From the NCBI GenBank assembly GCA_903847205.1, contig CAINDA010000028.1:4603-68602 (forward strand): a stretch of DNA of 64,000 bases. The letters are read 5' to 3'. Shown piece after piece: positions 11,287-63,512 of the stretch. The notes beneath the pieces are model-generated. The model worked only from the letters and a program-made list of their open reading frames with translations, did not search any database and was not told the DNA's origin. How positions within the stretch are numbered: position 1 is the first letter of the stretch; every line of letters begins with the position of its first letter. The translations under genes and the position numbers were made by a program. This DNA comes from an uncultured Bacteroidota bacterium. Lineage in GTDB: Bacteria; Bacteroidota; Bacteroidia; 2-12-FULL-35-15.

Positions 11287-14200
11287 CTATTGTACTATTA
11301 TTTTTTTATTCGCGATTGTTCCTTTTTCAGAAACAATTTGCACAAAATAAATACCGGCAGTCAGTTCTTCTTTTTCGATAACCAGCTTGTTTCCTGAAAA
11401 GTTAATTGTTTTAACTTCTTTACCAACCACATCAATAATTTTTGCAGTTCCGTTTTTTATTTCTTTAGAAAACGAAATTGATGTCTGCGATGAAAATGGA
11501 TTTGGATAAATACCAATCACTGATGCACTGTTTTTTTCTTGTATGCCAAGTGTCTGGTTTATTGAGATAGAATCATTTTGCACTGTAAACATCTGCGTTA
11601 CTCCGGCAGCATTATCTGCCTTAACACAGCATCCGGACAGGTGAAGCACCGCAGGCCCTGTTAATGAATTTTTAATCTGAAATTTAAAGTCTGCAATTTT
11701 TCCGAAACCGCCTGCATCTGTATGGTCAATCCTTGTAACAGCGCCGTAAGCGGTATTTGCTAATTCATCAATTTTAGCAATCTTTATTGCATTGGTACCC
11801 GGTGTGCCTATCCAGCTGGCCGGATAAGAAATACTTTCTGTTCCGGTTTGAATAAGCGACGCATCAAAATTGATATTAAATGAAACACCATATAAGCTGC
11901 TTATCGGCGAACTTGAAGTACCTAGCCATAGTTGGGCATCTATTATGCTTCCAGCTGTATAAGAGCTTCCGGAGATTACAAAATACATATCTGATGTTCT
12001 TATTCCTGAATTATTATTTTGAACCGGTGCAATTGCATGAGTTAAACTGAAATTCAAAGTAATTGCAAGAGTATCACTGGCATCAATCACTCCGTCTCCA
12101 TTGCAGTCAGCATGTTTAATATCATGTCCGTTGGCCTGAGCAGTTCCCCAATTAGCGACAGCAAAAGCCTGCCAGCTGTTATCCACACTTGCTCTTGGTG
12201 TTCCTGTCTGAGAATAAAATAAACCGATAGGTAATAAATCGTCATTGTTTACAATAGAATCGTTATCAGCATCGCCTGGCCAAACTGCCGGACTTACTGT
12301 TACAGTTACTGAAGCGCAGGATGTAGTATTACAGCCGCCAGCAGCTCTTACATAATAAGTAGTGGTTACAAGAGGTGAAACAGAAATTGAACTTCCTGTT
12401 CCAACAAGTGTTCCGCCGCAGCTGCCAGTGAACCAGCTGTAAACAGCACCGCCTCCGCCTAAAGTTCCGCCGGTTTCAGTTAATGTTGATGATAGTCCCG
12501 CATACACAATGTTTGGGCTTGCTGCTGCCGATGCCGGAGCAGTGGATAAAGAATTAACAGTAAGTGCAAGTACGAAATTTGTTGGATTTGTACAGCCGTT
12601 GGCAGAAACAGCATAAATGTAAGTGACATTTATTGGAGAAGCTGTAGTATTGGTAAGTATTTCATTTGGATTGCCCATGCCTGAAGCTGCTGGATTGCTG
12701 ATACCGACAACCATTGCTCTTGTCCATGTAAATGCTGCGCCTGATGTGCCGCTCGCAGGGACATAATTGAATGCAGTTCCGCTGCAGATTGCCGGAGGTG
12801 ATAATGAACTGCTTAATGAAGGTATTGGATTTACTGTTACAGTAACGTTTTGATTAACGCTGCATCCGTTTGCAGTAACTGTATAAACGTAAATAACATT
12901 TATAACATTTTGGCTTGTATTGGTAAGTGTTTCGTTGGGATTGCCAGTACCCGAAGCTGCAGGATTGCTGATACCTGTTATAACAGCCCTTGTCCATGCA
13001 AATGTTGCACCCAATGTGCTGCTTGTAGGTACATAATTGAAAACAGATCCGCTGCAAATTGCAGTCGGCGTTAAGGTGCTGTTTAGGGAGGCACCAGAAG
13101 TGCTGCTGCTTATGCTGTTAGAATTTGAACCGGTAGTGCATCCATTGCCAGCCCGCACGCGGTAATAATAAGTTACGTTTACTGTCAGCCCTGTTACATT
13201 AAAGGTAGTCATATTGCCTGTATTCAAATTATTGTAACCCGTTACAAAATTTGAAAACGCGGGATCAGTTGCAACATCTAAAAAATAAGTGGATGCGCCG
13301 GCTGCAGCAGCCCAATTGGCATCAAAAGAGGAACACATGATGTTGGAAGCAGCTGTTGCCGTTGAAGAAATGGCAGCAGCATTAAATGTTATGGTGTTTG
13401 AATTTAAACTTGTGCCGCAGCCATTCATTGCCCGCACACGGTAATAATAAGTGGTGTTTATTGTTAAGCCTGTGATATTATAAGTAGTAACATTGCCGAC
13501 ATTCAAATTATTATAACCCGAAACAAACGTTGAGAATGCAGCATCAACAGAAACATCCAGAAAATAGGCTGTTGCACTTCCAACTGCTGACCAGTTTGCA
13601 TTTAAAGAAGTGCAGGTTAAGTTGGTAGGTGCTGCTGCAATTGGAGCAGCAGGCAGCGGGTTTACTGTAATAACTACACTAAACGCCGCTGGGTTTGTAC
13701 AGCCGTTAGCGGTAACTGTATATACATAAGTAACATTTACAGGAGCTGCGGATGTATTAACTAGAACTTCATTCGGGTCACCGCTTCCAGAACCTGCAGT
13801 ATTGCTGATGTTTGCAACTGCTGGTCTTGTCCATGCAAATGCTGCACCCGATGTTAAACTTGCGGGAACATAACTAAAAGCAGTACCGCTGCAAATTGCA
13901 GGCGGTGTTAAGGAGCTGTTTAAACCCGGGGTTGGATACACTGTGGCAACAACATTATAAGAGGAAATATTTGTGCAGCCGTTTGCAGAAACAGTGTAAA
14001 TGTAAGTTGTATTCACAGGGGCTGCTGTTGTATTAATTAGTGTTTCGGCTGGGTCGCCAGCGCCGCTGCTGCTGCTGTTGCTGATGCCGGATACGGAAGC
14101 TCTTGTCCATGCAAATGATGCGCCCGATGTTGCACTTCCGGGTGTATAGCTGAAAAGAGAACCGCTGCATGTGCTGGCTGTTAAACTGCTGTTTAAAAAT

Positions 14201-15957
14201 GGCATCGGGTTTACAGTTACGAGCACGTTTTGAGTATCGCTGCATCCACTTGCGTTAAGTGAAAAAGCATAAGTAACATTAATCGGATTTGATGAAGTAT
14301 TGATAAGTGTTTCATTTGCATTGCCCGCTCCAGCAGCCGCAGGCTCCGTGATACCTGAGATAAGAGCTCTTGACCATGAAAAGGTTGTACCTGATGTAAG
14401 GCTTGCAGGTACATAACTGAATACTGATCCGCTGCATAATGCAGACGGTGTTAAAGTGCTGCTTAACGCAGGTATAGGCCTGACTGTTAAAGTTACACTG
14501 TATGCAGATGGGTTTGTACATCCGTTGGCGGTAACTGCATATACATAAGTAACATTTACAGGAGCTGCAGATGTATTAACAAGTACTTCATTCGGGTTGC
14601 CGCTTCCAGAACCTGCAGTATTGCTGATGTTTGAAACTGCTGGTCTTGTCCATGCAAATGTCGCACCCGATGTTAAACTTGCGGGAACATAATTAAATGC
14701 AGTACCGCTGCAAATTGCAGATGGTGCTAAGCTGCTGCTCAAACCCGGAGTTGGATATACTGTGGCAGCAACAATAAAATTGGAGATATTTGAGCAGCCA
14801 TTGGCAGAAACAGTGTAAATGTAAGTTGTATTTACGGGTGATGCTGTTGTATTAATTAGTGTTTCGGCTGGGTCGCCTGCACCGCTGCTGCTGCCGTTGC
14901 TGATGCCTGATACGGAGGCTCTTGTCCATGCAAATGAAGCGCCGGATGTAGCACTTCCGGGTGTATAGCTAAAAAGGGAGCCGCTGCATGTGCTAGCTGT
15001 TAAACTGCTGTTTAAAGCGGGTGTCGGGTTTACAGTTACGATAACATTTTGACCTCCGCTGCATCCATTAGCGTTAAGTGTAAAAACATAAGTAACATTA
15101 ATCGGATTTGATGAAGTATTGGTAAGTGTTTCATTCGGATTGCCCGCTCCTGAAGCCGCAGGCTGTGTGATACCTGAGATAAGAGCCCTTGACCACGAAA
15201 AAGATGTACCTGATGTTAAGCTTGTAGGTACATAACTGAATACTGTACCGCTGCACAATGCAGGTGGTGCTAAAGAGCTGCTTAATGCCGGTATAGGCCT
15301 TACTGTGAAAGTTACACTATATGCAGATGGGTTTGTACATCCGTTGGCCGTAACTGTATATACATAAGTAACATTTACTGGGTTTACTGTTGCGTTGTTA
15401 AGAACTTCGCTTGGATCTCCGCTTCCGCTGGCAGCGCTATTGCTGATACCAGATACTACAGGACGTACCCAGGCGAATGTGGCGCCGGATGTACCGCTTG
15501 CAGGTGAATAATGAAAAGTAACACCGCTGCAAATTGCCGATGGTGATAAGCTGCTGCTTAATGCAGGTATCGGATTTACAATGATTTTTCCGTACGCGAC
15601 AGCAGGGCTGCCTGTTCCGGTTGTAGTAATGGTATAATAAAAAGTGCCGGATACTGAGGGCGCGCCGCTGACAGTATATGTTCCTGCACTATAAAGACCT
15701 GATACACCCGTGGGCAGTCCGGTAATTCCGGCGCCGGTTGCTGTACCGCCTACATTATAGTTAATAACAATTATCAGGCTGTTGTTACAGACAGCCTGGG
15801 TATCTAGGCCTGAAGTCAAATTAATTGTCTGCTGAGCAGAAGCCTTATTAAAACCAGCGAAGGCCATTAACATAATAACTGCTGCCAGTATGTTAAAAGC
15901 CGTGGCTGCTTTTTTTAAGACATTGCTGCTTTTTGAATAGTAGTTTTTCGTTTCCAT
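11287..15957 (-). CDS. Giant T9SS-secreted adhesin-like protein (1556 aa). Contains tandem Ig/PKD-like ~90-aa domains, two FN3-like domains, dockerin-like and cohesin-like modules, and a C-terminal Por secretion tail.
   Basis: Signal peptide. Over 10 repeats of the pattern ..LCSG..F.Y.P...TSG..F.W.R......ANGC... Two ..TYYYRVRA(M/G)NGCG FN3-like ends. DADNDSIVNNDD and DCNGDGVIDASD are dockerin-like Ca loops. C-terminal YPNP...GIYFVQI is a T9SS CTD. Confidence 0.85.
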   Translation of the reverse strand: METKNYYSKSSNVLKKAATAFNILAAVIMLMAFAGFNKASAQQTINLTSGLDTQAVCNNSLIIVINYNVGGTATGAGITGLPTGVSGLYSAGTYTVSGAPSVSGTFYYTITTTGTGSPAVAYGKIIVNPIPALSSSLSPSAICSGVTFHYSPASGTSGATFAWVRPVVSGISNSAASGSGDPSEVLNNATVNPVNVTYVYTVTANGCTNPSAYSVTFTVRPIPALSSSLAPPALCSGTVFSYVPTSLTSGTSFSWSRALISGITQPAASGAGNPNETLTNTSSNPINVTYVFTLNANGCSGGQNVIVTVNPTPALNSSLTASTCSGSLFSYTPGSATSGASFAWTRASVSGISNGSSSGAGDPAETLINTTASPVNTTYIYTVSANGCSNISNFIVAATVYPTPGLSSSLAPSAICSGTAFNYVPASLTSGATFAWTRPAVSNISNTAGSGSGNPNEVLVNTSAAPVNVTYVYAVTANGCTNPSAYSVTLTVRPIPALSSTLTPSALCSGSVFSYVPASLTSGTTFSWSRALISGITEPAAAGAGNANETLINTSSNPINVTYAFSLNASGCSDTQNVLVTVNPMPFLNSSLTASTCSGSLFSYTPGSATSGASFAWTRASVSGISNSSSSGAGDPAETLINTTAAPVNTTYIYTVSANGCTNISSYNVVATVYPTPGLNSSLTPPAICSGTAFSYVPASLTSGAAFAWTRPAVANISNTAGSGSGDPNEVLVNTSAAPVNVTYVYTVTANGCTNPAAFSVVITVNPLPAAPIAAAPTNLTCTSLNANWSAVGSATAYFLDVSVDAAFSTFVSGYNNLNVGNVTTYNITGLTINTTYYYRVRAMNGCGTSLNSNTITFNAAAISSTATAASNIMCSSFDANWAAAAGASTYFLDVATDPAFSNFVTGYNNLNTGNMTTFNVTGLTVNVTYYYRVRAGNGCTTGSNSNSISSSTSGASLNSTLTPTAICSGSVFNYVPTSSTLGATFAWTRAVITGISNPAASGTGNPNETLTNTSQNVINVIYVYTVTANGCSVNQNVTVTVNPIPSLSSSLSPPAICSGTAFNYVPASGTSGAAFTWTRAMVVGISNPAASGMGNPNEILTNTTASPINVTYIYAVSANGCTNPTNFVLALTVNSLSTAPASAAASPNIVYAGLSSTLTETGGTLGGGGAVYSWFTGSCGGTLVGTGSSISVSPLVTTTYYVRAAGGCNTTSCASVTVTVSPAVWPGDADNDSIVNNDDLLPIGLFYSQTGTPRASVDNSWQAFAVANWGTAQANGHDIKHADCNGDGVIDASDTLAITLNFSLTHAIAPVQNNNSGIRTSDMYFVISGSSYTAGSIIDAQLWLGTSSSPISSLYGVSFNINFDASLIQTGTESISYPASWIGTPGTNAIKIAKIDELANTAYGAVTRIDHTDAGGFGKIADFKFQIKNSLTGPAVLHLSGCCVKADNAAGVTQMFTVQNDSISINQTLGIQEKNSASVIGIYPNPFSSQTSISFSKEIKNGTAKIIDVVGKEVKTINFSGNKLVIEKEELTAGIYFVQIVSEKGTIANKKIIVQ
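12880..15400. repeat. Intragenic near-identical DNA super-repeats (~814-bp period, about 3 copies; each encodes 3 Ig-like domains)
   Basis: Near-identical ~50-nt strings gggtttgtaca(g/t)ccgtt(a/g)gc.gtaactg.atatacataagtaacatttac.gg recur at ~13692, ~14507 and ~15320. The protein segments are >85% identical. Confidence 0.8.
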
Positions 15958-37538: not shown

Positions 37539-38576
37539 TTGAATATGAATAAAAAACAAATTATAACCGCCATTATTCACATACTTGTGTGGGCTCTTTT
37601 TTTGTCTATTCCTATTTTGTTTTTCAGTAATCCGCAGGGTGAACACGCTCCTCCCTTTCATAAAGATTTTTTCGGGCTAACAGAAATTATTTCATATTTA
37701 ACCTTTATAGGATTTTTTTATCTGAATGCTTATGTTCTTATTCCGGTTCTTTTATCGAAGAAAAAAACTATCGTTTATATTGCAACAGTAGTAGTTTTAA
37801 TTATCCTGATTGCTTCTGTTAATGCGGCAGTGAGTGATTTTTACAAGCCTCATCTGCATCCCAGAACTTTTATGCGGTTATTTGGTTTTAAATTATTTCC
37901 CTGCATTTTTAATTTCGCTATCAGCACAAGTTATAGAATTATTATAGATAATGTTGAAGCAGCAAAAACCAGAAAAGAAAAAGAGAATGAAAATTTAAAA
38001 AGCGAACTTTCTTTTTTACGGTCGCAGGTGAGCCCGCATTTTATGTTTAATGTTTTAAACAATATGGTGGCTCTTGCCCGAAAAAAATCGGATCGTTTGG
38101 AGCCGGCTTTAATTGAGCTGTCTAATTTAATGAGATATATGTTATATGAATCCGGTGAAGAAAAAGTAAGCGTCAATAAGGAAATTGAATATCTTAAAAG
38201 TTATATTGATTTGCAGATGCTGCGTTTTGGCGATGATGTTAAAGTTAATTTTGATGCAGTCCGTAAAACGGATACAGATAATTTTATTGAACCTATGCTG
38301 TTTATCCCTTTGGTTGAAAATGCTTTTAAGCATGGAATGGGCTTAGTAGAGAATCCTGAAATAAACATACAGCTGATCATAAATGAAGAGTCTATTTTTA
38401 TCCGCGTTATAAATAAATTCAACAGCCGTGAAACTTCAGGCAAAACTGGTAATTCAGGTATTGGACTGAGTAATTTAGAACGTCGTTTGAATTTGTTGTA
38501 TCCCGGTAAATATGAGCTCAAACTCTCAAATGAGAATAATCAATTTATCGCCGCTTTAAACTTAAATTTGAAATGA
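37539..38576 (+). CDS. LytS/YpdA-type membrane sensor histidine kinase
   Basis: Four N-terminal TM helices, then SPHFMFNVLNNMVALARK (His_kinase H-box) and NAFKHG..GIGLSN ATPase motifs. Stop overlaps the regulator start. Confidence 0.8.
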   Translation: MNMNKKQIITAIIHILVWALFLSIPILFFSNPQGEHAPPFHKDFFGLTEIISYLTFIGFFYLNAYVLIPVLLSKKKTIVYIATVVVLIILIASVNAAVSDFYKPHLHPRTFMRLFGFKLFPCIFNFAISTSYRIIIDNVEAAKTRKEKENENLKSELSFLRSQVSPHFMFNVLNNMVALARKKSDRLEPALIELSNLMRYMLYESGEEKVSVNKEIEYLKSYIDLQMLRFGDDVKVNFDAVRKTDTDNFIEPMLFIPLVENAFKHGMGLVENPEINIQLIINEESIFIRVINKFNSRETSGKTGNSGIGLSNLERRLNLLYPGKYELKLSNENNQFIAALNLNLK

Positions 38577-39289
38577 TGCGCTGCCTGGCAATAGATGATG
38601 AAACACTTGCGCTGGATCTGCTTGAAGATAATATCAGGCAGATTCCCTTTTTGCATCTGGTAAAGCGCTGCAAGAATGCTTATGAAGCAATTGAAGTATT
38701 ACAAAAGGAAGAAATTGATTTAATATTTTTGGATATTCAGATGCCCGGAATTACCGGCCTGCAGTTTCTGAAAAGCTTGAAGTCGCCTCCGATGGTGATT
38801 TTTATTACTGCCTATAAAGAACATGCACTTGAAAGTTTTAATTTGGATGTGCTGGATTACCTTGTTAAACCGGTTTCTTTTGAACGTTTTTTGAAAGCAT
38901 CAAATAAAGCTTTGGATTATTATAATTTGAAACAAAAGCTGGTACACACATCGTCGCCAGCTGCTGATTTTATATTTGTAAACGCTGAATATAGTCTTGT
39001 GAAAATTACAATTGCAGACATATCTTATGTAGAAGGATTAAAAGATTATATTAAAATTCACCTTGTAAATGCTGTAAAACCGGTTATTACGAGGATGAGT
39101 TTAAAAGGTATTGAGGAAAAACTGCCATTCGGGAAATTTTTTAGGATACATAAATCGTTTATTATTTCAATTGATAAAATTACTTCCATCCGAAAAAACC
39201 GGCTTTTTATAAAAGAGACAGAACTGCCTCTGAGCGATCTTTACAAAGATAATTTGTATAAAATTATAAGCCCAGAAAATATAATATAA
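38573..39289 (+). CDS. LytTR-family response regulator
   Basis: Receiver motifs (AIDDE, DLIFLDIQMP, KP) and a C-terminal LytTR domain. Overlaps the kinase stop by 4 nt. Confidence 0.85.
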   Translation: MMRCLAIDDETLALDLLEDNIRQIPFLHLVKRCKNAYEAIEVLQKEEIDLIFLDIQMPGITGLQFLKSLKSPPMVIFITAYKEHALESFNLDVLDYLVKPVSFERFLKASNKALDYYNLKQKLVHTSSPAADFIFVNAEYSLVKITIADISYVEGLKDYIKIHLVNAVKPVITRMSLKGIEEKLPFGKFFRIHKSFIISIDKITSIRKNRLFIKETELPLSDLYKDNLYKIISPENII

Positions 39290-53628: not shown

Positions 53629-53699
53629 TCGGGCAAAAATAAGGGTTTTTATTTTGCTGTGTATTTTAATGTGTTAGATTGCAGACGGATTTTCTGGAT

Positions 53700-53800
53700 G
53701 TGTTATGCGCAGTTAATCTTTACAAATGACAGAAAGTATCTGTGTTCCTGCTAAGTCTAAACCTCCCGCTCACTCGGCGCGGCCTGCCTGTTTCAGCAGG
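53700..53800. repeat. Dispersed intergenic repeat family 1, copy a (partial)
   Basis: ttatgcgcag..tctttacaaatgacagaaag..ctcactcggcgcg shares motifs with the copies at 54969-55060 and 56880-57050. Confidence 0.5.
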
Positions 53801-53850
53801 AATTATTTTTTCTATTTATATTTCTATAAATTTTCTATCTTCGCTGGTAT

Positions 53851-54948
53851 ATGAAAACAAATCAAATTCAGGAATTTTACCAGCTGCTTAAAAGCGACAA
53901 TCTTTCATTTATATATCAAGGTGATTTTAGCGACGGTATTACCGACAAAATAATTGCCCTGAGCGAATACAGTCTTGAAGACAAACATGAAATGGGAGAA
54001 ATAAGGAGAAAAGTTTCTTTTGTTATTATAGAGTGTTTTCAAAACATTGTAAGACATGGAAATGACGCCCGGAATAAATCCAACAGAACAGTAACATCTC
54101 CAGGCCTATTTTCTACTAGAAATACGAAAGACTGTATTTATATTGCTTCGGCTAATTTGATTGAAAAAGAAAATGTTGCTCAACTGACGGAAAAACTCGA
54201 AAGCCTGAACAAATTGAATAAAGAACAAAAGAAAGATCTGCATATTGATATTTTGAAAAATGGCAAACTTTCGGATAAAGGCGGTGCTGGCCTTGGATTT
54301 ATTGAGATGGCAAGAAAATCTGAGAACCCGCTGGAATTTACTTTTGAGAATGAGAATGATAAACTTTCGTTATTTTACCTGATGTTGAAAATGCATAGTA
54401 AAGGTGTGGTAAGCGAAAAATACGTTTCGATGCAAAGCGTAATTGAATCGTACGATTTAATGCGGAAAGAAAATATATTAATGATTTACAAAGGGGATTT
54501 TTCGCAGGAAACTGTTATTCCTATGCTTAAAATGGTTGAACATAATTTAAACAAGCATAAAGAAGGGCTTCATTTTACAAAGAAAATAGTGCTGGTGCTT
54601 ATTGAAATGCTGCAAAATATATCGAAACATGCTATTGAACTGAATGGTAAAAGAGATTCGATATTTATGATTGGTAAAAACAACAATAAATACATTATTT
54701 GTACCGGCAATATGGTTGACTCTGCTTCTTCAGAAAAATTAAAAACTAAAATAGATGCAGTTAACAATTTGAACCCGGAAGACTTGGTTGTTTTATACAA
54801 GAAGAAATTGAAAGAAAACGCATCCACTGAAAGGGGAGCCGGGCTGGGGATAATAGATATTGCCAGAGAAAGCACTGAAAAAATAGTATTCGATTTACAG
54901 CCGGTAGAAGGCGGGTTGCAATTTTTTTCATTATGTGTTCAAATATGA
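53851..54948 (+). CDS. Protein made of two tandem SiaB/RsbW-like GHKL ATPase (anti-sigma-factor-type Ser kinase-like) halves
   Basis: Each ~180-aa half has I(Y/K)GDFS, an N-box-like E.FQNIVRHG / EMLQNISKHA, and a G2-box GGAGLGFIEMARKS / ERGAGLGIIDIARES. Confidence 0.5.
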   Translation: MKTNQIQEFYQLLKSDNLSFIYQGDFSDGITDKIIALSEYSLEDKHEMGEIRRKVSFVIIECFQNIVRHGNDARNKSNRTVTSPGLFSTRNTKDCIYIASANLIEKENVAQLTEKLESLNKLNKEQKKDLHIDILKNGKLSDKGGAGLGFIEMARKSENPLEFTFENENDKLSLFYLMLKMHSKGVVSEKYVSMQSVIESYDLMRKENILMIYKGDFSQETVIPMLKMVEHNLNKHKEGLHFTKKIVLVLIEMLQNISKHAIELNGKRDSIFMIGKNNNKYIICTGNMVDSASSEKLKTKIDAVNNLNPEDLVVLYKKKLKENASTERGAGLGIIDIARESTEKIVFDLQPVEGGLQFFSLCVQI

Positions 54949-54968
54949 ATTTATCAAGCATTAATGCT

Positions 54969-55060
54969 GATATATGATATTCTGTGCATCGTAGCTTTTA
55001 CAAAGATTCAGTTACCTATCTCCTGCTGTTTTCATTAAACTTCGCGCCTACCTGGGCATT
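54969..55060. repeat. Dispersed intergenic repeat family 1, copy b
   Basis: gatattctgtg..cttttacaaa..aacttcgcgcctacctggg. It overlaps the last codons of the downstream lipoprotein gene. Confidence 0.6.
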
Positions 55061-55416
55061 TTAATAATAGTATTTTTATCGGCTTTCCCTAGCTCATAAA
55101 ATATCGGCTTGTAGTTTTCCTTGGTTAAATAAATGCTCACCTTTTTATTGATACACTTTCTGACTACTGCAGGGATATGCAATTCAAAGTTTCCATTTTT
55201 ATCGGATGAAGTATTCACAACTATACTTGGCATACAATTGTAATTCTGGAGCGTAATTGTTACGTTTTCTAAAGGAATGCTGTCATGTTCTGATACCACC
55301 TGCCCCTTGTAAACTGCACTGCATCCCAAATTGAATAATAATACTATAGGCATAATTATTATCGAGTATAAGTATTTGGTTTTTTTCACCTTTTTATCAA
55401 TGACTTTATTATTCAA
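55048..55416 (-). CDS. Small lipoprotein with a carboxypeptidase-regulatory-like (CarbopepD_reg) fold
   Basis: Lipobox LFNLGC. GQVVSEHDSIPLENVTITLQNY..DKNGNFEL pattern. Paralogous N-terminus to the next gene. Confidence 0.5.
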   Translation of the reverse strand: MNNKVIDKKVKKTKYLYSIIIMPIVLLFNLGCSAVYKGQVVSEHDSIPLENVTITLQNYNCMPSIVVNTSSDKNGNFELHIPAVVRKCINKKVSIYLTKENYKPIFYELGKADKNTIIKMPR

Positions 55417-55432
55417 TATTTGCCGATTTTGA

Positions 55433-55486
55433 AAGTTCGTCAGTATGCCGGTTAAATTAAGCGCAGCTGTATGCTGCGCTTAAGGG
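55433..55486. repeat. Conserved leader motif with a 10-bp hairpin (copy 1), directly upstream of the lipoprotein gene
   Basis: aagttcgtcagtatgccggttaaattaagcgcagctgtatgctgcgcttaaggg. Stem taagcgcagc (55458-55467) pairs with gctgcgctta (55473-55482). Confidence 0.75.
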
Positions 55487-55521
55487 CAAATGAAAATAAT
55501 AATTAATAATCAATTATTAAA

Positions 55522-56010
55522 TCAACGCACTGCATCTGCAATTAATTTTTCGAAAACTCCGGTACTTTTTATTTCTATATTGGGGATAGCTGTGTTGTAG
55601 CATTTTATCTCCATCAAAGTTGCAATTACTGCAGTTTTTTCTCCCGCTTTTTTCACTCTGATATTCCATTCTCCGGTGATATATAAATACTTTTCCTTAT
55701 CAAGTGAATTAACCACAACAAAGGCGTTTGGATTAATTAAATGCCCGTCAACTTCGGTGGAAAATGTTAAAGAACTTTCTTTAGATACTATTAACCCGCT
55801 GGGTTCTTCAATAATTCTGATGGATATTCCTTTGGCGGCTAGTAAATCAATTACCTCTGACCAAACTTCATCTACCGTTTTGGCTGATTCAATATGAAAC
55901 GATGAATCTTGATATTTTCCGATAAGAGCCGTACGCTGTACATTACATGATGTGAAAAGTAATACTATCGGCAACATTATTACAGAGTAAATGTGTATTG
56001 TTTTTTTCAT
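55522..56010 (-). CDS. Hypothetical lipoprotein (162 aa), paralogous signal region to 55048..55416
   Basis: Lipobox LLFTSC. Shares the Y.YS.IM.PIVLLF N-terminus with the neighbouring gene. An A10 tract lies immediately 5' of the start codon. Confidence 0.5.
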   Translation of the reverse strand: MKKTIHIYSVIMLPIVLLFTSCNVQRTALIGKYQDSSFHIESAKTVDEVWSEVIDLLAAKGISIRIIEEPSGLIVSKESSLTFSTEVDGHLINPNAFVVVNSLDKEKYLYITGEWNIRVKKAGEKTAVIATLMEIKCYNTAIPNIEIKSTGVFEKLIADAVR

Positions 56011-56054
56011 TTTTTTTTTGGTTAATTGTTATTACTATTTTTTATGATTTTAAA

Positions 56055-56110
56055 AAGTTCGGCAGGATGCCGGTTAAAGAAAGCGCAGCGGGATGCTGCG
56101 CTTAACGGGG
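56055..56110. repeat. Conserved leader motif with a hairpin (copy 2)
   Basis: aagttcggcaggatgccggttaaagaaagcgcagcgggatgctgcgcttaacgggg. About 80% identical to copy 1, with the same stem. Confidence 0.75.
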
Positions 56111-56116
56111 GTGCAG

Positions 56117-56503
56117 TTAAGGATTTTCTTTAATAATAAGCAGAATTGCCTTTTTTAATTTAGGAATAAAATCAGTACAAATTTCAAAGACAATCTCAGA
56201 TTGAAGCTTTTCATAATGATGAGAAATAATATCACGCAGACGAATAATTTTCACCCACTCAATTTCTGTATGCTTATCCAGTATTTCAGGATACTTTTCT
56301 TCAATTTTCTTTAAATTTTCACCTATTGCCTGCAAACGCATCATAGTTGCATCAAATAAGGTAATACCATGCGAAGACGAATCATAATCACCAGGATTTT
56401 TAATATCTTTTGTACATATATTTATCCTATGAATATGCTCAAGAATATATTCTAATTTTGAAATAAGAACATCATTTTTAGGCATAGATAATTTCTTTTT
56501 CAA
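56117..56503 (-). CDS. hepT: HepT-like (DUF86) HEPN ribonuclease toxin
   Basis: 128 aa. C-terminal RDIISHHY (Rx4HxY HEPN motif). Overlaps the upstream nucleotidyltransferase gene by 26 nt. Confidence 0.75.
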   Translation of the reverse strand: MKKKLSMPKNDVLISKLEYILEHIHRINICTKDIKNPGDYDSSSHGITLFDATMMRLQAIGENLKKIEEKYPEILDKHTEIEWVKIIRLRDIISHHYEKLQSEIVFEICTDFIPKLKKAILLIIKENP

Positions 56504-56768
56504 TAATTGTAAGAAAACGTGTAGATAAACTGCGGCTTTTAGTTACCAAGTCTACTTTTTTGTTCAACAGCTTTTCTAAATACAAATAAGCACCCATCAA
56601 TGAATCAAAAGATGGTTTTTTAAATTGAATTAAAATATCCACATCACTTTCGGCGGTTTCATCACCTCTGGCATAAGAGCCAAATACTCCAATTTCTTCA
56701 ACTCCAAAAGCATTCGAAAGATAATTTTTTTGGGATCTGATTGATTCTATGACGCTTTGATTCTTCAT
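56478..56768 (-). CDS. mntA: MntA-like minimal nucleotidyltransferase antitoxin
   Basis: 96 aa. GSYARG...SDVDIL is the pol-beta NTase signature. Confidence 0.8.
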   Translation of the reverse strand: MKNQSVIESIRSQKNYLSNAFGVEEIGVFGSYARGDETAESDVDILIQFKKPSFDSLMGAYLYLEKLLNKKVDLVTKSRSLSTRFLTIIEKEIIYA

Positions 56769-56879
56769 GTGAAAACAAATTTACAAAAAATAGCAAAGGA
56801 GCACTATGATGAATGAATAATTTATGGGGGAAGGCGGGGTTTAGTTTTTTTATTTTAGTATTTTGGTTGAACTGTCGTT

Positions 56880-57050
56880 GCGCGCTATATGTGATATTCT
56901 GTGTAGGATAAGCGCAGCTTACCTTTTACAAATGACACGAAGCAGCTGCCATCTTGCTTTCGCCGAACTTCGCGCCTACTGGGGCTATTCAATAAACTGT
57001 GTAAGTGTTATCTGCCCTCTTGCTTTCGCTGAACTTCGCGCCTAGTGGGA
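56880..57050. repeat. Dispersed intergenic repeat family 1, copy c, with an internal 45-nt tandem duplication
   Basis: gatattctgtgtaggataagcgcagc..cttttacaaatgacacgaag..cttgctttcgccgaacttcgcgcctactgggg, then cttgctttcgctgaacttcgcgcctagtggg. Confidence 0.65.
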
Positions 57051-57063
57051 TATTATAATCTTT

Positions 57064-57585
57064 TTAATTAAGCCTATCATACTTTCTTTTATATTCGTTG
57101 ATAACCTCTCCCTTTTTTGCTTCTAAAGTTCTTTCTAATTGTAATAACTTTACCAACTCTTCATCAGAAAAATTTGTGGATCTATGATCTGATCGATTTA
57201 TTCCAATTAATTCTAAAATTTCACTTTCATACTTAAGCTGTTTATAGCCATATCTTTTATTATATCTAAATATCATAATCACATATAGCTTGTCTTCGAT
57301 CGGTTTAATTGTTTTTTTTAACTCCAGTTTCCAATCATTTTTCAAAAAACTATTCATTTTATATTTTTTATCGACCAATTTCCTCGCACTATTTATTAGG
57401 TCAGGCAAGTCTTCGGGTGAACTGATTGTTTGCCCCCATTTATTTTTTATATTCATACCAGTTGCCCATGAACTAAGCATATAAACTCCTCCACCTATAA
57501 TGAGTATAAAAATTAAAATTAAAATCCCTTCCATACGAATTTGAGTTTTGTTTCTGATCGATTTACATCGGCGGCAATTTTTCAA
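57064..57585 (-). CDS. Hypothetical single-pass membrane protein. A 173-aa ORF; the likely start is Met17 at ~57537.
   Basis: A TM helix ILILIFILIIGGGVYMLSSW followed by a charged K/E-rich soluble domain. Very AT-rich. Overlaps or abuts the upstream HEPN-like gene. Confidence 0.4.
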   Translation of the reverse strand: MKNCRRCKSIRNKTQIRMEGILILIFILIIGGGVYMLSSWATGMNIKNKWGQTISSPEDLPDLINSARKLVDKKYKMNSFLKNDWKLELKKTIKPIEDKLYVIMIFRYNKRYGYKQLKYESEILELIGINRSDHRSTNFSDEELVKLLQLERTLEAKKGEVINEYKRKYDRLN

Positions 57586-58024
57586 AAAATTCCTTCACTA
57601 AATAGCGAAGGATTGGTGTAGTTATTGAAAGTATTTCTTTATCTCTCTTAGAATTTAAGCCCTTATTTCCATGAAATAGATTACATCTTACTTGATATAA
57701 ACACCACATTACAGTTGATAAATCTACAACTTCAATTTTTACTTGATTATTCTTTTTGGGGCGCTCGTCTTTTATTGATTTTAAAGATAAAATTTTATCA
57801 AACTCATTTTTATATTGTTTATAAACCCGATTAAAAATTTCTTTTGTATCCGAATCTTGAATAATCATTTTTATGGCGGTTCTTTCGGTTTCAGTTGTAA
57901 CTGCGACATAATAGCAATTAAAGGCTATCCAATAACAAATAAATTTATTTACATCTTCTTGTTCATTTTCGCCTTTTTTAATCCAATCATTCATTATTCC
58001 ACAAGTAATTTCTGCTGATGCCAT
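57563..58024 (-). CDS. Hypothetical protein with a HEPN-like Rx4HG motif (153 aa)
   Basis: QVRCNLFHGNKG at residues ~111-122 fits the HEPN Rx4-6H catalytic motif. The rest is predicted all-alpha. No closer family call is possible. Confidence 0.35.
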   Translation of the reverse strand: MASAEITCGIMNDWIKKGENEQEDVNKFICYWIAFNCYYVAVTTETERTAIKMIIQDSDTKEIFNRVYKQYKNEFDKILSLKSIKDERPKKNNQVKIEVVDLSTVMWCLYQVRCNLFHGNKGLNSKRDKEILSITTPILRYLVKEFFEKLPPM

Positions 58025-58072
58025 AGAATTTATTTTAGTCCGTTTTAATTAATTCTAAACAGTGTGATAATC

Positions 58073-58276
58073 TTAAAGGTTCGGTTCTTCCAAAAAATTT
58101 TTATCAAGGTTATTACATAAGCATAGAATGGGACTTCCATTTTCATTCAAGGAAGGGCCAAATTTAAAGTATTGCTGTCCTTCTTTGATTACAACATCTA
58201 TTATTTGATAAATATTATTATCATTAGAATTTCTACGCGTATATTTCTTTCCTTTTTTTTTCTTATTTTCTTTCAT
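58073..58276 (-). CDS. Small basic hypothetical protein (67 aa)
   Basis: Lys/Arg-rich N-terminus (MKENKKKKGKKYTRR). First gene downstream of a -7-like promoter box. ORF only. Confidence 0.3.
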   Translation of the reverse strand: MKENKKKKGKKYTRRNSNDNNIYQIIDVVIKEGQQYFKFGPSLNENGSPILCLCNNLDKNFLEEPNL

Positions 58277-58328
58277 TAGTTGAATAATTTATGATGTTGT
58301 ATATTTTATATAACTATATGTTTAAAGA

Positions 58329-58336
58329 CAAATATA
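58329..58336 (-). promoter_or_regulatory. Candidate -7 promoter box TAtaTTTG for the 67aa / HEPN-like / TM operon
   Basis: Reverse complement of caaatata matches the Bacteroidota TAnnTTTG consensus ~53 nt upstream of the start codon. Confidence 0.3.
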
Positions 58337-58343
58337 TCCAAAT

Positions 58344-58374
58344 AAAAAAGACGAAGCCCCCGGCTTCGTCTTTT
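58344..58374. terminator. Bidirectional rho-independent terminator ending the 58395..59048 gene
   Basis: A6 - gacgaagcc (58350-58358) - ccc - ggcttcgtc (58362-58370) - tttt. A 9-bp perfect stem. Confidence 0.65.
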
Positions 58375-58394
58375 AAAGTTTTATAAAAACATAA

Positions 58395-59048
58395 TTAATT
58401 CTGTACAAATACCGAACGTGTAATACTTGCCGGGCCGGTACCTGCGGCGTTATGAGCAAATACTTTAATATTTATTCCGGCGCCAAGAGGGAGGCCGCTT
58501 AAAGTTTCGTGTGAAGTAGCATTTGCAATAAAACTTATAGGTGCGGCACCTGCAGCAATATTTATCTGTTTATTGTTGCTTAATGTAACTGCAGCTTCGG
58601 CACCCACAAAAGCAATAATGCTGTATTTTTCAACACCTGCCATTGGTATTATCTGCACAACTATATTACCGTTTTTAGAAGTTAAATCTTTTATAACAGC
58701 CTGTCCGGGTAAAACAGAAGGTGTGCGTTCAGTGGCAGTGTTTTCGAAACCTGCACTGTGAATTTTAGCAACATCTTCACCGCAGTTTAATGTTACATAT
58801 TCGCCTACCTCAGTAAGCATAGTGCATGAATCGATTAAAGTACTATCATACACATCTTTATCAGCTTTTCTGTTGTTATAGGCATTTAAGCATACAACGC
58901 CTTGAGCTGTTATAGCAGCCGGTGTATGAGGCGGGTTAGGATAAGCGGCATTGTTAAGCATTTCGGTGCCCACGTTTGAGAGGATGCCTGCTGTTATAAG
59001 GCCGTTTTTTCTTGTCCAAGTATCTTTAACTTTTGGTTTTAGTGACAT
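58395..59048 (-). CDS. Hypothetical protein with a C-terminal fibronectin-type-III-like domain and no signal peptide
   Basis: The C-terminus ..GAGINIKVFAHNAAGTGPASITRSVFV resembles FN3 F-G strands. The N-terminal ~110 aa are unassigned. The gene is monocistronic, with its own terminator. Confidence 0.45.
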   Translation of the reverse strand: MSLKPKVKDTWTRKNGLITAGILSNVGTEMLNNAAYPNPPHTPAAITAQGVVCLNAYNNRKADKDVYDSTLIDSCTMLTEVGEYVTLNCGEDVAKIHSAGFENTATERTPSVLPGQAVIKDLTSKNGNIVVQIIPMAGVEKYSIIAFVGAEAAVTLSNNKQINIAAGAAPISFIANATSHETLSGLPLGAGINIKVFAHNAAGTGPASITRSVFVQN

Positions 59049-59177
59049 ATTTCTTTTGTTAAATGTTTTCGAAACAAAGAAAAAGAGTCCCTGAAATTTA
59101 TTTTATGATACTGCTCATAATCATTTCTGCTTTTTCGCAAGTTTTAAAATAGAGAATAAATTTTTTGGCAGCGAGCA

Positions 59178-59199
59178 TTTTTGGCAGTTTCTGCCAAAA
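59178..59199. promoter_or_regulatory. Operator-like palindrome ttttggcag-ttt-ctgccaaaa, with a partial upstream direct copy
   Basis: 9-bp arms (59179-59187 / 59191-59199). ttttttggcagcgagc precedes it at 59161-59176. Confidence 0.4.
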
Positions 59200-59226
59200 T
59201 AAATTCTGAACAAGGCTGTAAAAACA

Positions 59227-59406
59227 TTATCATAGCTATGATAATGTTTATCATAGGTATGATAGAAGTTATCATAGCTATGATAAACTCTTTCAAAGGT
59301 ATGATAGAAGTTATCATAGCTATGATAACGTTTATCAAAGGTATGATAGCTGTTATCATAGCTATGATAAACTCTTTCAAAGGTATGATAGACTTTATCA
59401 TAGCTT
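59227..59406. repeat. Phased tandem array of 8.5 x 21-bp palindromic units (42-bp higher-order period)
   Basis: The perfect 18-bp palindrome TTATCATAGCTATGATAA occurs at 59227, 59269, 59311, 59353 and 59395 (truncated). It alternates with TTTATCATAGGTATGATAG-like half-degenerate units at +21. Confidence 0.9.
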
Positions 59407-59425
59407 GTTTAAACATCCTGCAAGA

Positions 59426-59607
59426 CCTCACCCCCGGCCCCTCTCCTTGAAAAAGGAGAGGGGAGCCATAATTTTAAGAATTTGAATGGATACAGAATAG
59501 AACCCCTCTCCTTTTTCAAGGAGAGGGGCAGGGGTGAGGTGAATGAGTGTTTTGGTTTATGTGATAGAACCCCTCTCCTTTTTCAAGGAGAGGGGCAGGG
59601 GTGAGGT
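59426..59607. repeat. Three REP-like hairpin elements (copy 1 inverted relative to copies 2 and 3)
   Basis: cctcacccc.gcccctctcctt-GAAA-aaggagagggg has an 11-bp stem and a GNRA loop. Copy 1 is at 59426-59466; reverse-complement copies are at 59499-59541 and 59567-59607. Confidence 0.85.
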
Positions 59608-59694
59608 AAATTAATAATTGCTCGTCTTGTATAAAAGAATTAAATTGCAGTGCAAATCGAAAGAATTATAAATTAATTTCTAATCTATCACGAT

Positions 59695-61425
59695 ATGAAA
59701 AAACATATACTCTTATCAGCTTTAGCATTTTTAACTTTTATAACTATTGAATGCCATGCACAGCTGCCAACCGGCAGTATAGCTCCCGATTGGACTTTTA
59801 CTGACATAAACGGTGTAAGTCATCATTTGTATGCCGATTTAGATGCAGGTAAAACTGTTTATCTTGATTTATCAACTACATGGTGTGCCGGATGCTGGGA
59901 TTGGCATACGAGCGGTTATATTGAAACACTCTGGCAGAATCACGGCCCTATTGGTCAGCCAGGGGTTAGCCCGAGTTCAACAAATGATATTCTTTTTTAT
60001 CTGATGGAATGCGACGGCTCAAATAATTATGCCTGCCTTATAGGCGATAATGTTAATTGTACAAATGTTTACAATGAAGCAAGCATGGGCAATTGGGTTA
60101 CAGGAACCAATTATCCGATAATTGATCCGCCGTCGCCTGCCATTGATGTATTCAATACTAATTACCAGAGCGGCAGTTACCCTACAATTTTTGTGATTTG
60201 TCCCGACCGCTCCTTAACAAACTATTGGAATAATGCTCCGCCGGATATGTATCAGGCTGCAACCTGCGCCACTGCTTCAGCAGGAGCCGATGCCCGTATG
60301 AGAGTAATGGATTTATTTCCGCCCCTGCTCGAATCCTGCGACAGCGTTATACCGGCATTTCATATTTCAAATAATGGAAGCAGTACGTTAACCTCGGCCA
60401 ATATTGCCTTTAAAGTGGATGGTATAACTCAAAAAAATTATCATTGGACAGGCAGCCTTCCCACTTATCACGATGCATTAATCAGCGGCATCAAAGTAGG
60501 TTCATCAGTGCCGGGCCATCATACTGCTTCAGTTGTAGTTTCCAGCCCCAACGGACTCACTGACCCTACACCATCAAACAATACTGCAGCACTGTCATTT
60601 AATATTTATCCTTCCGTTGGCCCGCTGGTTTCAGAATCATTCGAAGCTTCCGGAATACCATCTTCCTGGACTATCGGCAATGGCGGACATGCGCCAACCT
60701 GGACAACAGGTTCTGTAGGCTATAATTCTTCGAAATCTGCTTTTTTAAATTGGAACGACAGCATTCCTGATATGTATGAAGTAGATTTGTTTAATATTAA
60801 AGCGCAGTCGTTTGCCAATGCAGGTTCTGCTTCATTAACGTTTGATGTTGCTTATTGCGAAAGCTTTTATCAATATAATCTTGCAGAATTAGATGTTGAA
60901 ATTTCTACCGACTGCGGTATTACATGGCTATCAAAATATGCGAAAATCGGCAATGCTTTGGCCACAAAGCCCTATAGCAACAACCCTTTTGTCCCTGCAT
61001 CTGCAGCAGATTGGAGACATGAAACAGTAAATTTAACATCCGCTGCCGGGCAGTCGCATGTGTTAATTCGCTTTAAAGCAACTTCAGCTAACGGCAATAA
61101 TTTATATATCGATAATATTAATGTAACCGCTGCAGTTACCACAGGCATTGAAGAAGCAGGAAGGATTAATACAATAAATGTTTATCCTAATCCGATAACA
61201 AATAATGCAACTATTGATTTTAACTTAGTTAAAGATGCTGATAATGTATCAATTTTGCTGGTGAATGAACTTGGCCAGGAAGTATTAAATAAAAATCTCG
61301 GGCATTTAAGTTCAGGAGAACAAAATTATAATCTTAATGTTTCCGCATTAAATAATGGATTGTATTTATTGAAAATTAAAACCGGCGAAAATATAATCAC
61401 CAAAAAAGTATTTATAGATAAATAA
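59695..61425 (+). CDS. T9SS-secreted protein with an N-terminal thioredoxin-fold (CxxC) domain and a C-terminal Por secretion tail
   Basis: Signal peptide. DWTFTDINGVSHHLYADLDAGKTVYLDLSTTWCAGCW is a redoxin-like motif. C-terminal VYPNP..N.ATIDF......V.I.LVN.LGQEV......GLYLLKIKTG is a T9SS CTD. Confidence 0.7.
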   Translation: MKKHILLSALAFLTFITIECHAQLPTGSIAPDWTFTDINGVSHHLYADLDAGKTVYLDLSTTWCAGCWDWHTSGYIETLWQNHGPIGQPGVSPSSTNDILFYLMECDGSNNYACLIGDNVNCTNVYNEASMGNWVTGTNYPIIDPPSPAIDVFNTNYQSGSYPTIFVICPDRSLTNYWNNAPPDMYQAATCATASAGADARMRVMDLFPPLLESCDSVIPAFHISNNGSSTLTSANIAFKVDGITQKNYHWTGSLPTYHDALISGIKVGSSVPGHHTASVVVSSPNGLTDPTPSNNTAALSFNIYPSVGPLVSESFEASGIPSSWTIGNGGHAPTWTTGSVGYNSSKSAFLNWNDSIPDMYEVDLFNIKAQSFANAGSASLTFDVAYCESFYQYNLAELDVEISTDCGITWLSKYAKIGNALATKPYSNNPFVPASAADWRHETVNLTSAAGQSHVLIRFKATSANGNNLYIDNINVTAAVTTGIEEAGRINTINVYPNPITNNATIDFNLVKDADNVSILLVNELGQEVLNKNLGHLSSGEQNYNLNVSALNNGLYLLKIKTGENIITKKVFIDK

Positions 61426-61698: not shown

Positions 61699-63345
<1,647 letters not shown>

Positions 63346-63512
63346 TTATTTATTGATTAATTATTTGTTTGTTGTTTTTTGTTTAGTCCCCCTTGTGGGT
63401 TTTAGCTTGTGTGATAGAGAAAGGGGGAGCGCTGGCTCTGTGTGCTGCAGGGGGATGTTACCCGCTTCGCTTTTCTCCATTTCTCCAACTCTCTAATTCT
63501 CTATTTCCCTAA

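Follow-up and report, generated by a model that had tools for sequence, protein, structure and literature searches.

The interval 53629-59650 of a 64,000-nucleotide (nt) stretch of DNA from an uncultured Bacteroidota bacterium (contig CAINDA010000028.1; the whole stretch is referred to here as the window) is located between a YdjC-GT2-GT87 glycosyltransferase cluster and groESL, and contains short genes together with several families of repeats and hairpins. Its SiaB-like gene lies on the + strand; every other gene within the interval lies on the - strand, in the order p217, p67, p153, TM156, MntA, HepT and two lipoprotein genes (with decreasing coordinate). We read the interval, with a probability of about 55%, as a lineage-specific patchwork of small, separately transcribed cassettes and not as one inserted element. 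Only the core at 56117-58276 looks like a toxin-antitoxin or defence module.

Genes and features of the interval

The following features were identified (strand is given where it applies; aa, amino acids):

53851-54948, + strand: gene of a SiaB-like orphan protein with two tandem DUF6272 (GHKL-like) kinase domains (Pfam DUF6272 1.5e-66, two stretches)
55048-55416, - strand: gene of a small lipoprotein, 122 aa, with an N-terminal hydrophobic segment and LGC|S
55427-55486: copy 1 of the D3 repeat, 60 nt, with the hairpin TTAAGCGCAGC..GCTGCGCTTAA (-21.1 kcal/mol, z -5.0)
55522-56010, - strand: gene of a lipoprotein, 162 aa, with a signal peptide and a TSC|N lipobox-like site
56049-56108: copy 2 of the D3 repeat, 60 nt (hairpin -18.3 kcal/mol, z -3.4)
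56117-56503, - strand: gene of a predicted HepT-like HEPN RNase toxin (Pfam PF01934 HepT-like 2.3e-16; RX4HXY)
56478-56768, - strand: gene of a predicted MntA-like minimal nucleotidyltransferase antitoxin (Pfam PF01909 NTP_transf_2 7.6e-15; GSX10DXD)
56818-57060: D2 repeat region, inside the 295-nt gap between TM156 and MntA
57064-57534, - strand: TM156, a 156-aa single-pass protein with an N-terminal anchor (hydrophobic segment) and a Lys/Glu-rich tail
57563-58024, - strand: p153, a lone HEPN-like protein of 153 aa with an invariant Rx4H motif (RCNLFH)
58073-58276, - strand: p67, an open reading frame (ORF) of 67 aa upstream of p153; basic, isoelectric point 9.2
58346-58374, - strand: canonical intrinsic terminator after p217, 13-bp stem and U-tract (-18.7 kcal/mol, z -4.3)
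58395-59048, - strand: p217, a monocistronic 217-aa orphan whose C-terminal half is possibly FN3/Ig-like
59227-59405: 21-bp array of nine units (Tandem Repeats Finder period 21/42/84)
59432-59611: three GC-rich hairpins (CCCCTCTCCTT-N4-AAGGAGAGGGG) between the array and the type IX secretion system (T9SS) gene
59695-61425: T9SS gene (Pfam scan), beyond the interval

The gene inventory of a preliminary description of this DNA was correct: the tandem two-domain protein, the two lipoproteins, HepT/MntA, p67-p153-TM156, p217 and the T9SS gene are all present. The repeats and hairpins described there are also found and exceed chance expectation, and the terminator-like hairpins fold with -18 to -24 kcal/mol (z -3.4 to -5).

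Base composition, gene order and marks of mobile elements

The GC content of the interval is 33.5% compared to 36.8% in the window, which is about 2 standard deviations (sd) lower (sd of 6-kb windows, 1.7 points). The region 35.7-41.7 kb reaches the same level (33.3%), and its genes are ordinary ones, namely those of a TPR protein, a LytS/LytTR two-component system, a LuxC-like reductase and a ferredoxin. Z-scores of single genes refer to the 44 other genes of the window (GC 38.1 ± 3.2%; GC at third codon positions, GC3, 33.9 ± 4.4%). The sole GC outliers are the five adjacent genes of HepT, MntA, TM156, p153 and p67 (27-32% GC, z -1.9 to -3.5; HepT 27.6%, z -3.3), whereas the SiaB-like gene (z -1.4), both lipoprotein genes and p217 deviate by about 1.7 sd at most. 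Since only these five genes deviate, the compositional signal is that of a 2.2-kb core and not of a 6-kb island. The low GC content claimed for the interval thus holds with regard to the window mean, but it is weaker than had been assumed and is shared with the stretch at 35.7-41.7 kb.

It is conceivable that the interval is ordinary core chromosome, composed of small Lys/Asn/Ile-rich genes and intergenic DNA, in which the GC dip results from the amino acid composition; it would then be no more of an accessory region than any other part of this poorly syntenic genome. The ordinary genes of the equally low stretch are in agreement with this explanation, and so is the finding that GC follows the type of protein: p217 (40.8%) and the T9SS gene (39.8%) are not low, and the strongest composition anomaly of the window is a GC-rich one (43-47% across 11287-15957, - strand), which encodes a 1556-aa T9SS-secreted PKD/FN3/Ig protein. 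The GC3 of groEL and groES is equally low (0.24 and 0.21), and synteny is missing in the relatives on both sides of the YdjC cluster. In addition, eight of the nine island genes, the AT-rich ones among them, use synonymous codons as the host does (the exception is the short lipoprotein gene 55048-55416, z -3.3), and this also counts against the patchwork. On the other side, the GC3 of the five adjacent core genes is 1.8-3.3 sd below that of the other 44 genes (z -1.8 to -3.3), the gene content, with a toxin-antitoxin pair, orphans and a family embedded in restriction-modification operons, is of a kind typical of flexible genomes, and homology with the p153 orthologue stops at the gene borders. 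We therefore regard ordinary core chromosome as rather unlikely, even if the compositional signal alone is weak evidence for a foreign origin.

The nearest GroEL match among 185,579 species-representative genomes has an identity of 87%. None of the island genes, YdjC or the T9SS gene was found within 10 kb of the 80 nearest GroEL loci (≤87% identity); because these loci share no neighbour, they cannot bound an island. A scan of the species-representative genomes with YdjC revealed no relative. YdjC, GT2 and GT87 are kept as a three-gene unit at 81, 74, 67 and 48% identity, and the upstream neighbour of YdjC differs in all four relatives: it is non-homologous non-coding DNA into the contig end (81%), a divergently transcribed Methyltransf_30 gene (74%), a T9SS NHL-repeat protein (67%) or a CarbopepD_reg_2 protein (48%). 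The downstream side of the cluster differs among the relatives as well. The contig end of the 81% relative (L009, 1-26) carries an Illumina adapter (AGATCGGAAGAGCACACGTCTGAACT, reverse strand).

The gene order of this neighbourhood is conserved in no available relative. The flanks, which the preliminary description had called conserved loci, consist of conserved genes, but they are not conserved as neighbours. Related genomes in which the interval is syntenic and equally AT-rich, the observation named there as speaking against an island, were not found; because nothing around the interval is syntenic in the available relatives, this is weak support and no proof. A further point against the patchwork is that no genome with an empty site occurs among the available relatives, so that acquisition is inferred and not demonstrated. 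The relatives neither refute the accessory status of the interval nor prove it as an insertion.

The interval could also be explained as a decayed integrative element, that is, the remnant of a prophage, an integrative and conjugative element or an integrated plasmid between the glycosyltransferase cluster and groESL, with the array as its former centromere or iteron. A GC content lower than the average of the window, with a 2.2-kb core that is clearly AT-rich, would fit such an element, as would the many orphan genes, the phased iteron-like array and an arrangement that is absent from all relatives examined. However, the window contains no tRNA gene. From ~44.8 kb onwards and past groES, the called genes include no integrase, transposase, Rep or Par, and no integrase or transposase was found among the genes scanned at 34.6-44.7 kb. 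No direct repeats bound the interval, and half of it is normal in composition. None of p153, p217, TM156 and the entire 6-kb sequence matched phage or plasmid collections, at either the protein or the DNA level, and PHROG gave no hits either. Furthermore, p153 and p217 have orthologues (77% and 88%, respectively) that stand by themselves, each in a separate and unrelated context, and the pieces are therefore not one element; they move or persist independently. A decayed integrative element is thus highly improbable, and this part of the preliminary description was not supported.

If the patchwork is the correct reading, the interval is one more small toxin-antitoxin or defence patch in the flexible gene complement of a Bacteroidia lineage that has hardly been sampled. 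It is fairly ordinary and of modest interest, the p153 family and the dyad array being the sole items worth a follow-up, and the understanding of such regions is unchanged by any of these results.

The cumulative GC skew peaks at 54-55 kb; the 64-kb window is too short to separate a replication landmark from gene orientation.

The MntA-HepT pair and the p153 family

The MntA gene is located directly upstream of the HepT gene and overlaps with it (56478-56503). The motifs of both proteins are intact, namely RX4HXY in HepT (RDIISHHY, residues 90-97) and GSX10DXD in MntA (GSYARGDETAESDVD, starting at residue 30). Using PADLOC, MntA matches the candidate PDC-S09 (3.1e-29). With both Pfam domains, both motifs and an antitoxin gene that comes first and overlaps the toxin gene, the pair resembles the type VII system HepT/MntA. 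By analogy with this system, MntA would AMPylate the HepT RNase, which would then be silent until the antitoxin is lost or overwhelmed.

The second putative RNase of the core, p153, belongs to a family of 551 cluster representatives (E ≤ 1e-3, exhaustive HMMER search), mostly with 145-175 aa. In an alignment of 50 members, F28, N36, Y110, R113, N115, H118, G119 and K121 are invariant. The family signature is FxxWIAFN...YQVRCNLFHGxK...RD, in which R113-x4-H118 corresponds to the Rx4-6H motif of HEPN proteins; an RNase activity of p153 may be inferred from this motif. A confident AlphaFold2 (AF2) model of the protein (predicted local distance difference test, pLDDT, 93.7) is all-alpha, with seven helices, except for a short two-strand hairpin. 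Ten of the 50 members match the Pfam family MauJ (PF17419; best 6.4e-9), and p153 itself is below the threshold of this family (17.4 vs 28 bits). A literature search for MauJ plus HEPN revealed nothing relevant. The C-terminal region of DzbB in PADLOC (PDLC03836, positions ~248-336 of 341) is matched by 15 of the 50 members (best 1.7e-6). The Dazbog system includes a DUF262 component (PMC10952713). In contrast to DzbB of this system, p153 covers only the DzbB tail, and no DUF262 DzbA-type partner is encoded nearby.

The genomic contexts of the p153 homologues were scanned on the basis of 148 proteins encoded up to two genes away from ~70 homologues. Matches were obtained for N6_Mtase (5), Eco57I (5), Methylase_S (4), ResIII (3), Mrr (2) and HsdM_N (2), and single matches for GmrSD, a Cas3-like protein and PD-(D/E)XK. 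In two type I restriction-modification operons, the homologue lies between hsdM and hsdS (locus L123, 1522-4745) or precedes hsdS-hsdM (L121, 7977-11199). Other homologues directly follow Eco57I-type methylases (L100, L108), adjoin Mrr and PD-(D/E)XK nucleases (L099, L097) or an MNT gene (L095), or are located beside an operon of a cyclic oligonucleotide-based anti-phage signalling system (CBASS; L092). An all-against-all BLAST of 200 neighbour proteins revealed no recurrent partner family. The DNA homology with the 77% orthologue covers only window 58059-57573, i.e. the gene and 35 nt, and includes neither p67 nor TM156. In viral contigs the family is rare (four weak relatives among 2.9 million contigs).

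Because the homologues occur in restriction-modification and CBASS contexts and have no recurrent partner, we assign p153 to the gene pool of defence islands, as a HEPN-like cassette that stands alone. Its link to defence is based on the neighbourhoods of its homologues. For the HEPN superfamily, lone HEPN or abortive-infection genes are described that lie inside restriction-modification operons and defence islands; p153 resembles them in its small size, in its all-alpha model, in possessing Rx4H, and in having homologues between hsdM and hsdS and beside CBASS. Most likely, p153 forms a dimer that acts as a second toxin of the RNase type or as an effector of abortive infection, and its gene would travel as a single-gene cassette. 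We tentatively suggest that p153 might represent an uncharacterised lone HEPN-like family, distantly related to MauJ and the DzbB C-terminal region, which would enter restriction-modification operons and defence islands as a single-gene cassette and act as a partner-free anti-phage or abortive-infection RNase; separately, and with the same reservation, the 21-bp array may travel with p217 as a self-contained regulated module.

At the present locus p153 is flanked by p67 and TM156, and the three could be regarded as a dedicated three-component system in which a HEPN RNase works together with a membrane effector and a small regulator that binds DNA or RNA. All three are encoded on one strand with gaps of only 48 nt (p67-p153) and 28 nt (p153-TM156), between a terminator and the 295-nt gap. 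However, neither p67 nor TM156 accompanies p153 at the 77% orthologue or at the ~70 other loci, no partner family recurs among the 200 neighbour proteins, and both form singleton clusters at 90% identity. Neither of them matches a family in Pfam, PADLOC, NCBIfam or PHROG, and p67 may not be a real gene. Such a system is therefore hardly probable; p67 and TM156 are local orphans and not conserved partners of p153.

Several results weigh against the reading of the core as a toxin-antitoxin or defence module. The predicted HepT/MntA pair differs from type VII pairs in that it scores below the NCBIfam equivalog cut-offs of 60 (HepT_toxin 31.8 bits, MntA 44 bits); both are family members at the Pfam level only. 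PADLOC finds no validated defence system in this region, only the candidate PDC-S09 (MntA) and the weak DzbB match (p153). Unlike the lone HEPN or abortive-infection genes mentioned above, p153 has neither a significant structural match nor detectable similarity to HepT, and only one of the 50 family members matches a named HEPN family (HEPN_Apea, E 0.004). Foldseek searches with p153 against solved and viral structures gave nothing significant (best PDB E 1.6, BFVD E 0.72), and a PDB sequence search no relative. When the profile of the p153 family was aligned with HepT, its neighbour here, using hhalign, nothing was found (probability 0.2). The upstream partners of the p153 homologues are very varied (class II amidotransferase-like, AIG2-like, nucleases, unknowns) and do not indicate a single mechanism.

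The preliminary description had considered the whole interval as a possible defence or toxin-antitoxin islet. Intact MntA-HepT motifs and the defence-associated neighbours of the p153 homologues support this for the 2.2-kb core. If the patchwork is the correct reading, the interval also draws attention to the compact p153 family (~550 clusters, ~150 aa, invariant Rx4H), which is repeatedly found within restriction-modification operons and for which there is neither a solved structure nor a tested function. It is a cheap candidate for defence screens.

At three further loci (L120, 152-925; L170, 4349-5137; L168, 1617-2051) the p153 homologue is tightly coupled to an upstream gene, whose product is class II glutamine-amidotransferase-like or AIG2/GGACT-like and would be an unusual partner for a HEPN-type protein. 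The gene upstream of the homologue at L092 was considered as a Panacea-type antitoxin, which was not supported by Pfam. Short contigs with p153 (0.9-1.4 kb) from four samples were considered as strain variation; this was rejected, as they are 100% identical to the window.

The 21-bp array with p217, and the flanking genes

The terminator at 58346-58374 lies between p217 and the p67-p153-TM156 unit. p217 showed no family match and only weak matches to FN3 structures in PDB (E 0.03-0.14). Its homologues form a single cluster among 5.8 billion proteins (88% identity), and this orthologue is found in a context of GH44-T9SS, DCC1-like and hydrolase genes, without groESL, p67 and p153. An AF2 model based on two sequences was unusable (pLDDT 33).

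The array is located 180 nt upstream of p217. Its units are perfect 18-bp palindromes (TTATCATAG|CTATGATAA) alternating with an imperfect variant, with 8.5 copies in total, for which 0.08 matches are expected by chance (shuffles). It creates an ORF at 59144-59431. In the sister genome, an ORF of 100 aa without a Pfam match is present upstream of the p217 orthologue; it matches ORF 59144-59431 in its distance and strand, which is the lead for a possible module of array and p217. The variation among the units is confined to the 6-nt linker between the palindromes and does not follow third codon positions; the array therefore fits DNA-level binding sites and not a coding repeat. Most simply, it would represent operator-type sites for a dimeric DNA-binding protein. 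The nine phased dyad sites upstream of p217 would bind such a protein, and the three GC-rich hairpins would act as insulators between them and the T9SS gene.

Plasmid iterons and ParR-type centromeres are phased tandem binding-site repeats, and the array resembles them in its nine tandem repeats phased at 21 bp, i.e. about two helical turns. It differs from them in that each unit is a dyad, no Rep or Par is encoded nearby and no similarity to plasmids or phages was found. Of the centromere- or iteron-like array of the preliminary description, the repeat itself was confirmed, but a role as centromere or iteron was not. The palindrome yielded one chance-level match in the viral collection. What is left is an unusually regular, possible protein-binding array without a known partner. 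The sites of LytTR regulators are 9-bp repeats with 12-bp spacers, which also corresponds to a 21-bp period; a LytS-type histidine kinase and a LytTR response regulator are encoded at window 37539-39289, and their link to the array is a lead only. Just before the array (window 59164-59200), TTTTGGCAG occurs twice, followed by the inverted copy CTGCCAAAA with a 9-bp stem.

Of the three GC-rich hairpins, the first has the opposite orientation to the others, which are both part of a 67-bp direct repeat. Three such hairpins compare with 0 expected; each folds with about -23 kcal/mol, and the whole block has a z of -11.7. No copy was found at other loci or in the viral collection. Rfam gave nothing at the gathering threshold, and at E ≤ 1 generic hairpin matches only (microRNA-precursor models and one small RNA model).

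At the opposite end of the interval, both stretches of the SiaB-like protein match the NCBIfam model SiaB_fam_kinase (NF038262; 2.9e-80, 268 bits vs a cut-off of 85), and the gene is divergent from the YdjC-GT2-GT87 cluster. The likeness to the SiaB kinase of SiaABCD is that both halves match the SiaB-family model; the difference is that two kinase domains are fused here and neither SiaC nor SiaA is encoded alongside. A phmmer search found no SiaC-like ORF in the window. In the 67% relative (L010, 10814-11792), a pair of a single-domain DUF6272 protein and SiaC is encoded just downstream of YdjC-GT2-GT87. Since this pair lies on the other side of the cluster, the SiaB-like gene may belong functionally with the cluster and not with the island, and there are hints of a recurrent link between SiaB-type signalling and the YdjC-GT2-GT87 cluster. 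A TPR-SpoIIE (PP2C) phosphatase, which could be a SiaA-type partner, is encoded at window 9273-11120 (+ strand), 43 kb from the SiaB-like gene. A homologue of this phosphatase also occurs near the YdjC cluster in L010 (first gene).

The 122-aa lipoprotein, whose gene starts at 55353 according to gene callers, contains a weak CarboxypepD_reg-like domain below the cut-off (Pfam 3.8e-4); the 162-aa lipoprotein has no significant match in Pfam, NCBIfam or PHROG. The two D3 copies are 85% identical and do not occur outside the interval. Copy 1 separates the two lipoprotein genes, following the 162-aa gene and preceding the 122-aa gene; copy 2 closely follows HepT and precedes the gene of the 162-aa lipoprotein. 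Both lipoprotein genes thus share a 5' element (85%) and a signal-peptide start, which argues for a local cassette duplication. The D2 family has three to four local copies, with a 38-nt unit at 56946 and 57012 (92% identical) and weaker copies at 55018 and 53740. A nature of the D2 repeats as RNA element was rejected, as neither a consensus structure nor covariation was found.

Other assemblies of the same strain contain the array and the hairpins without a single base difference; for the array, these include the contigs L002 and L007. Of the short contigs with p153, the three from run ERR4193932 (L001, L003 and L008) break off at repeats (D3, D2, the terminator and the triple hairpin), and the breaks of L004-L006 lie inside the p67 and TM156 genes. 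L002 and L007 were considered as a second strain, which was rejected: they are identical to the window at 49.7-62.0 kb and then switch to a foreign groEL. In L007 (ERZ27313292), positions ~12300-13660 correspond to window 62000-63350 and contain more than 300 differences (mismatches and gap positions) inside groEL; this switch probably reflects a chimeric metagenome assembly at a conserved gene.

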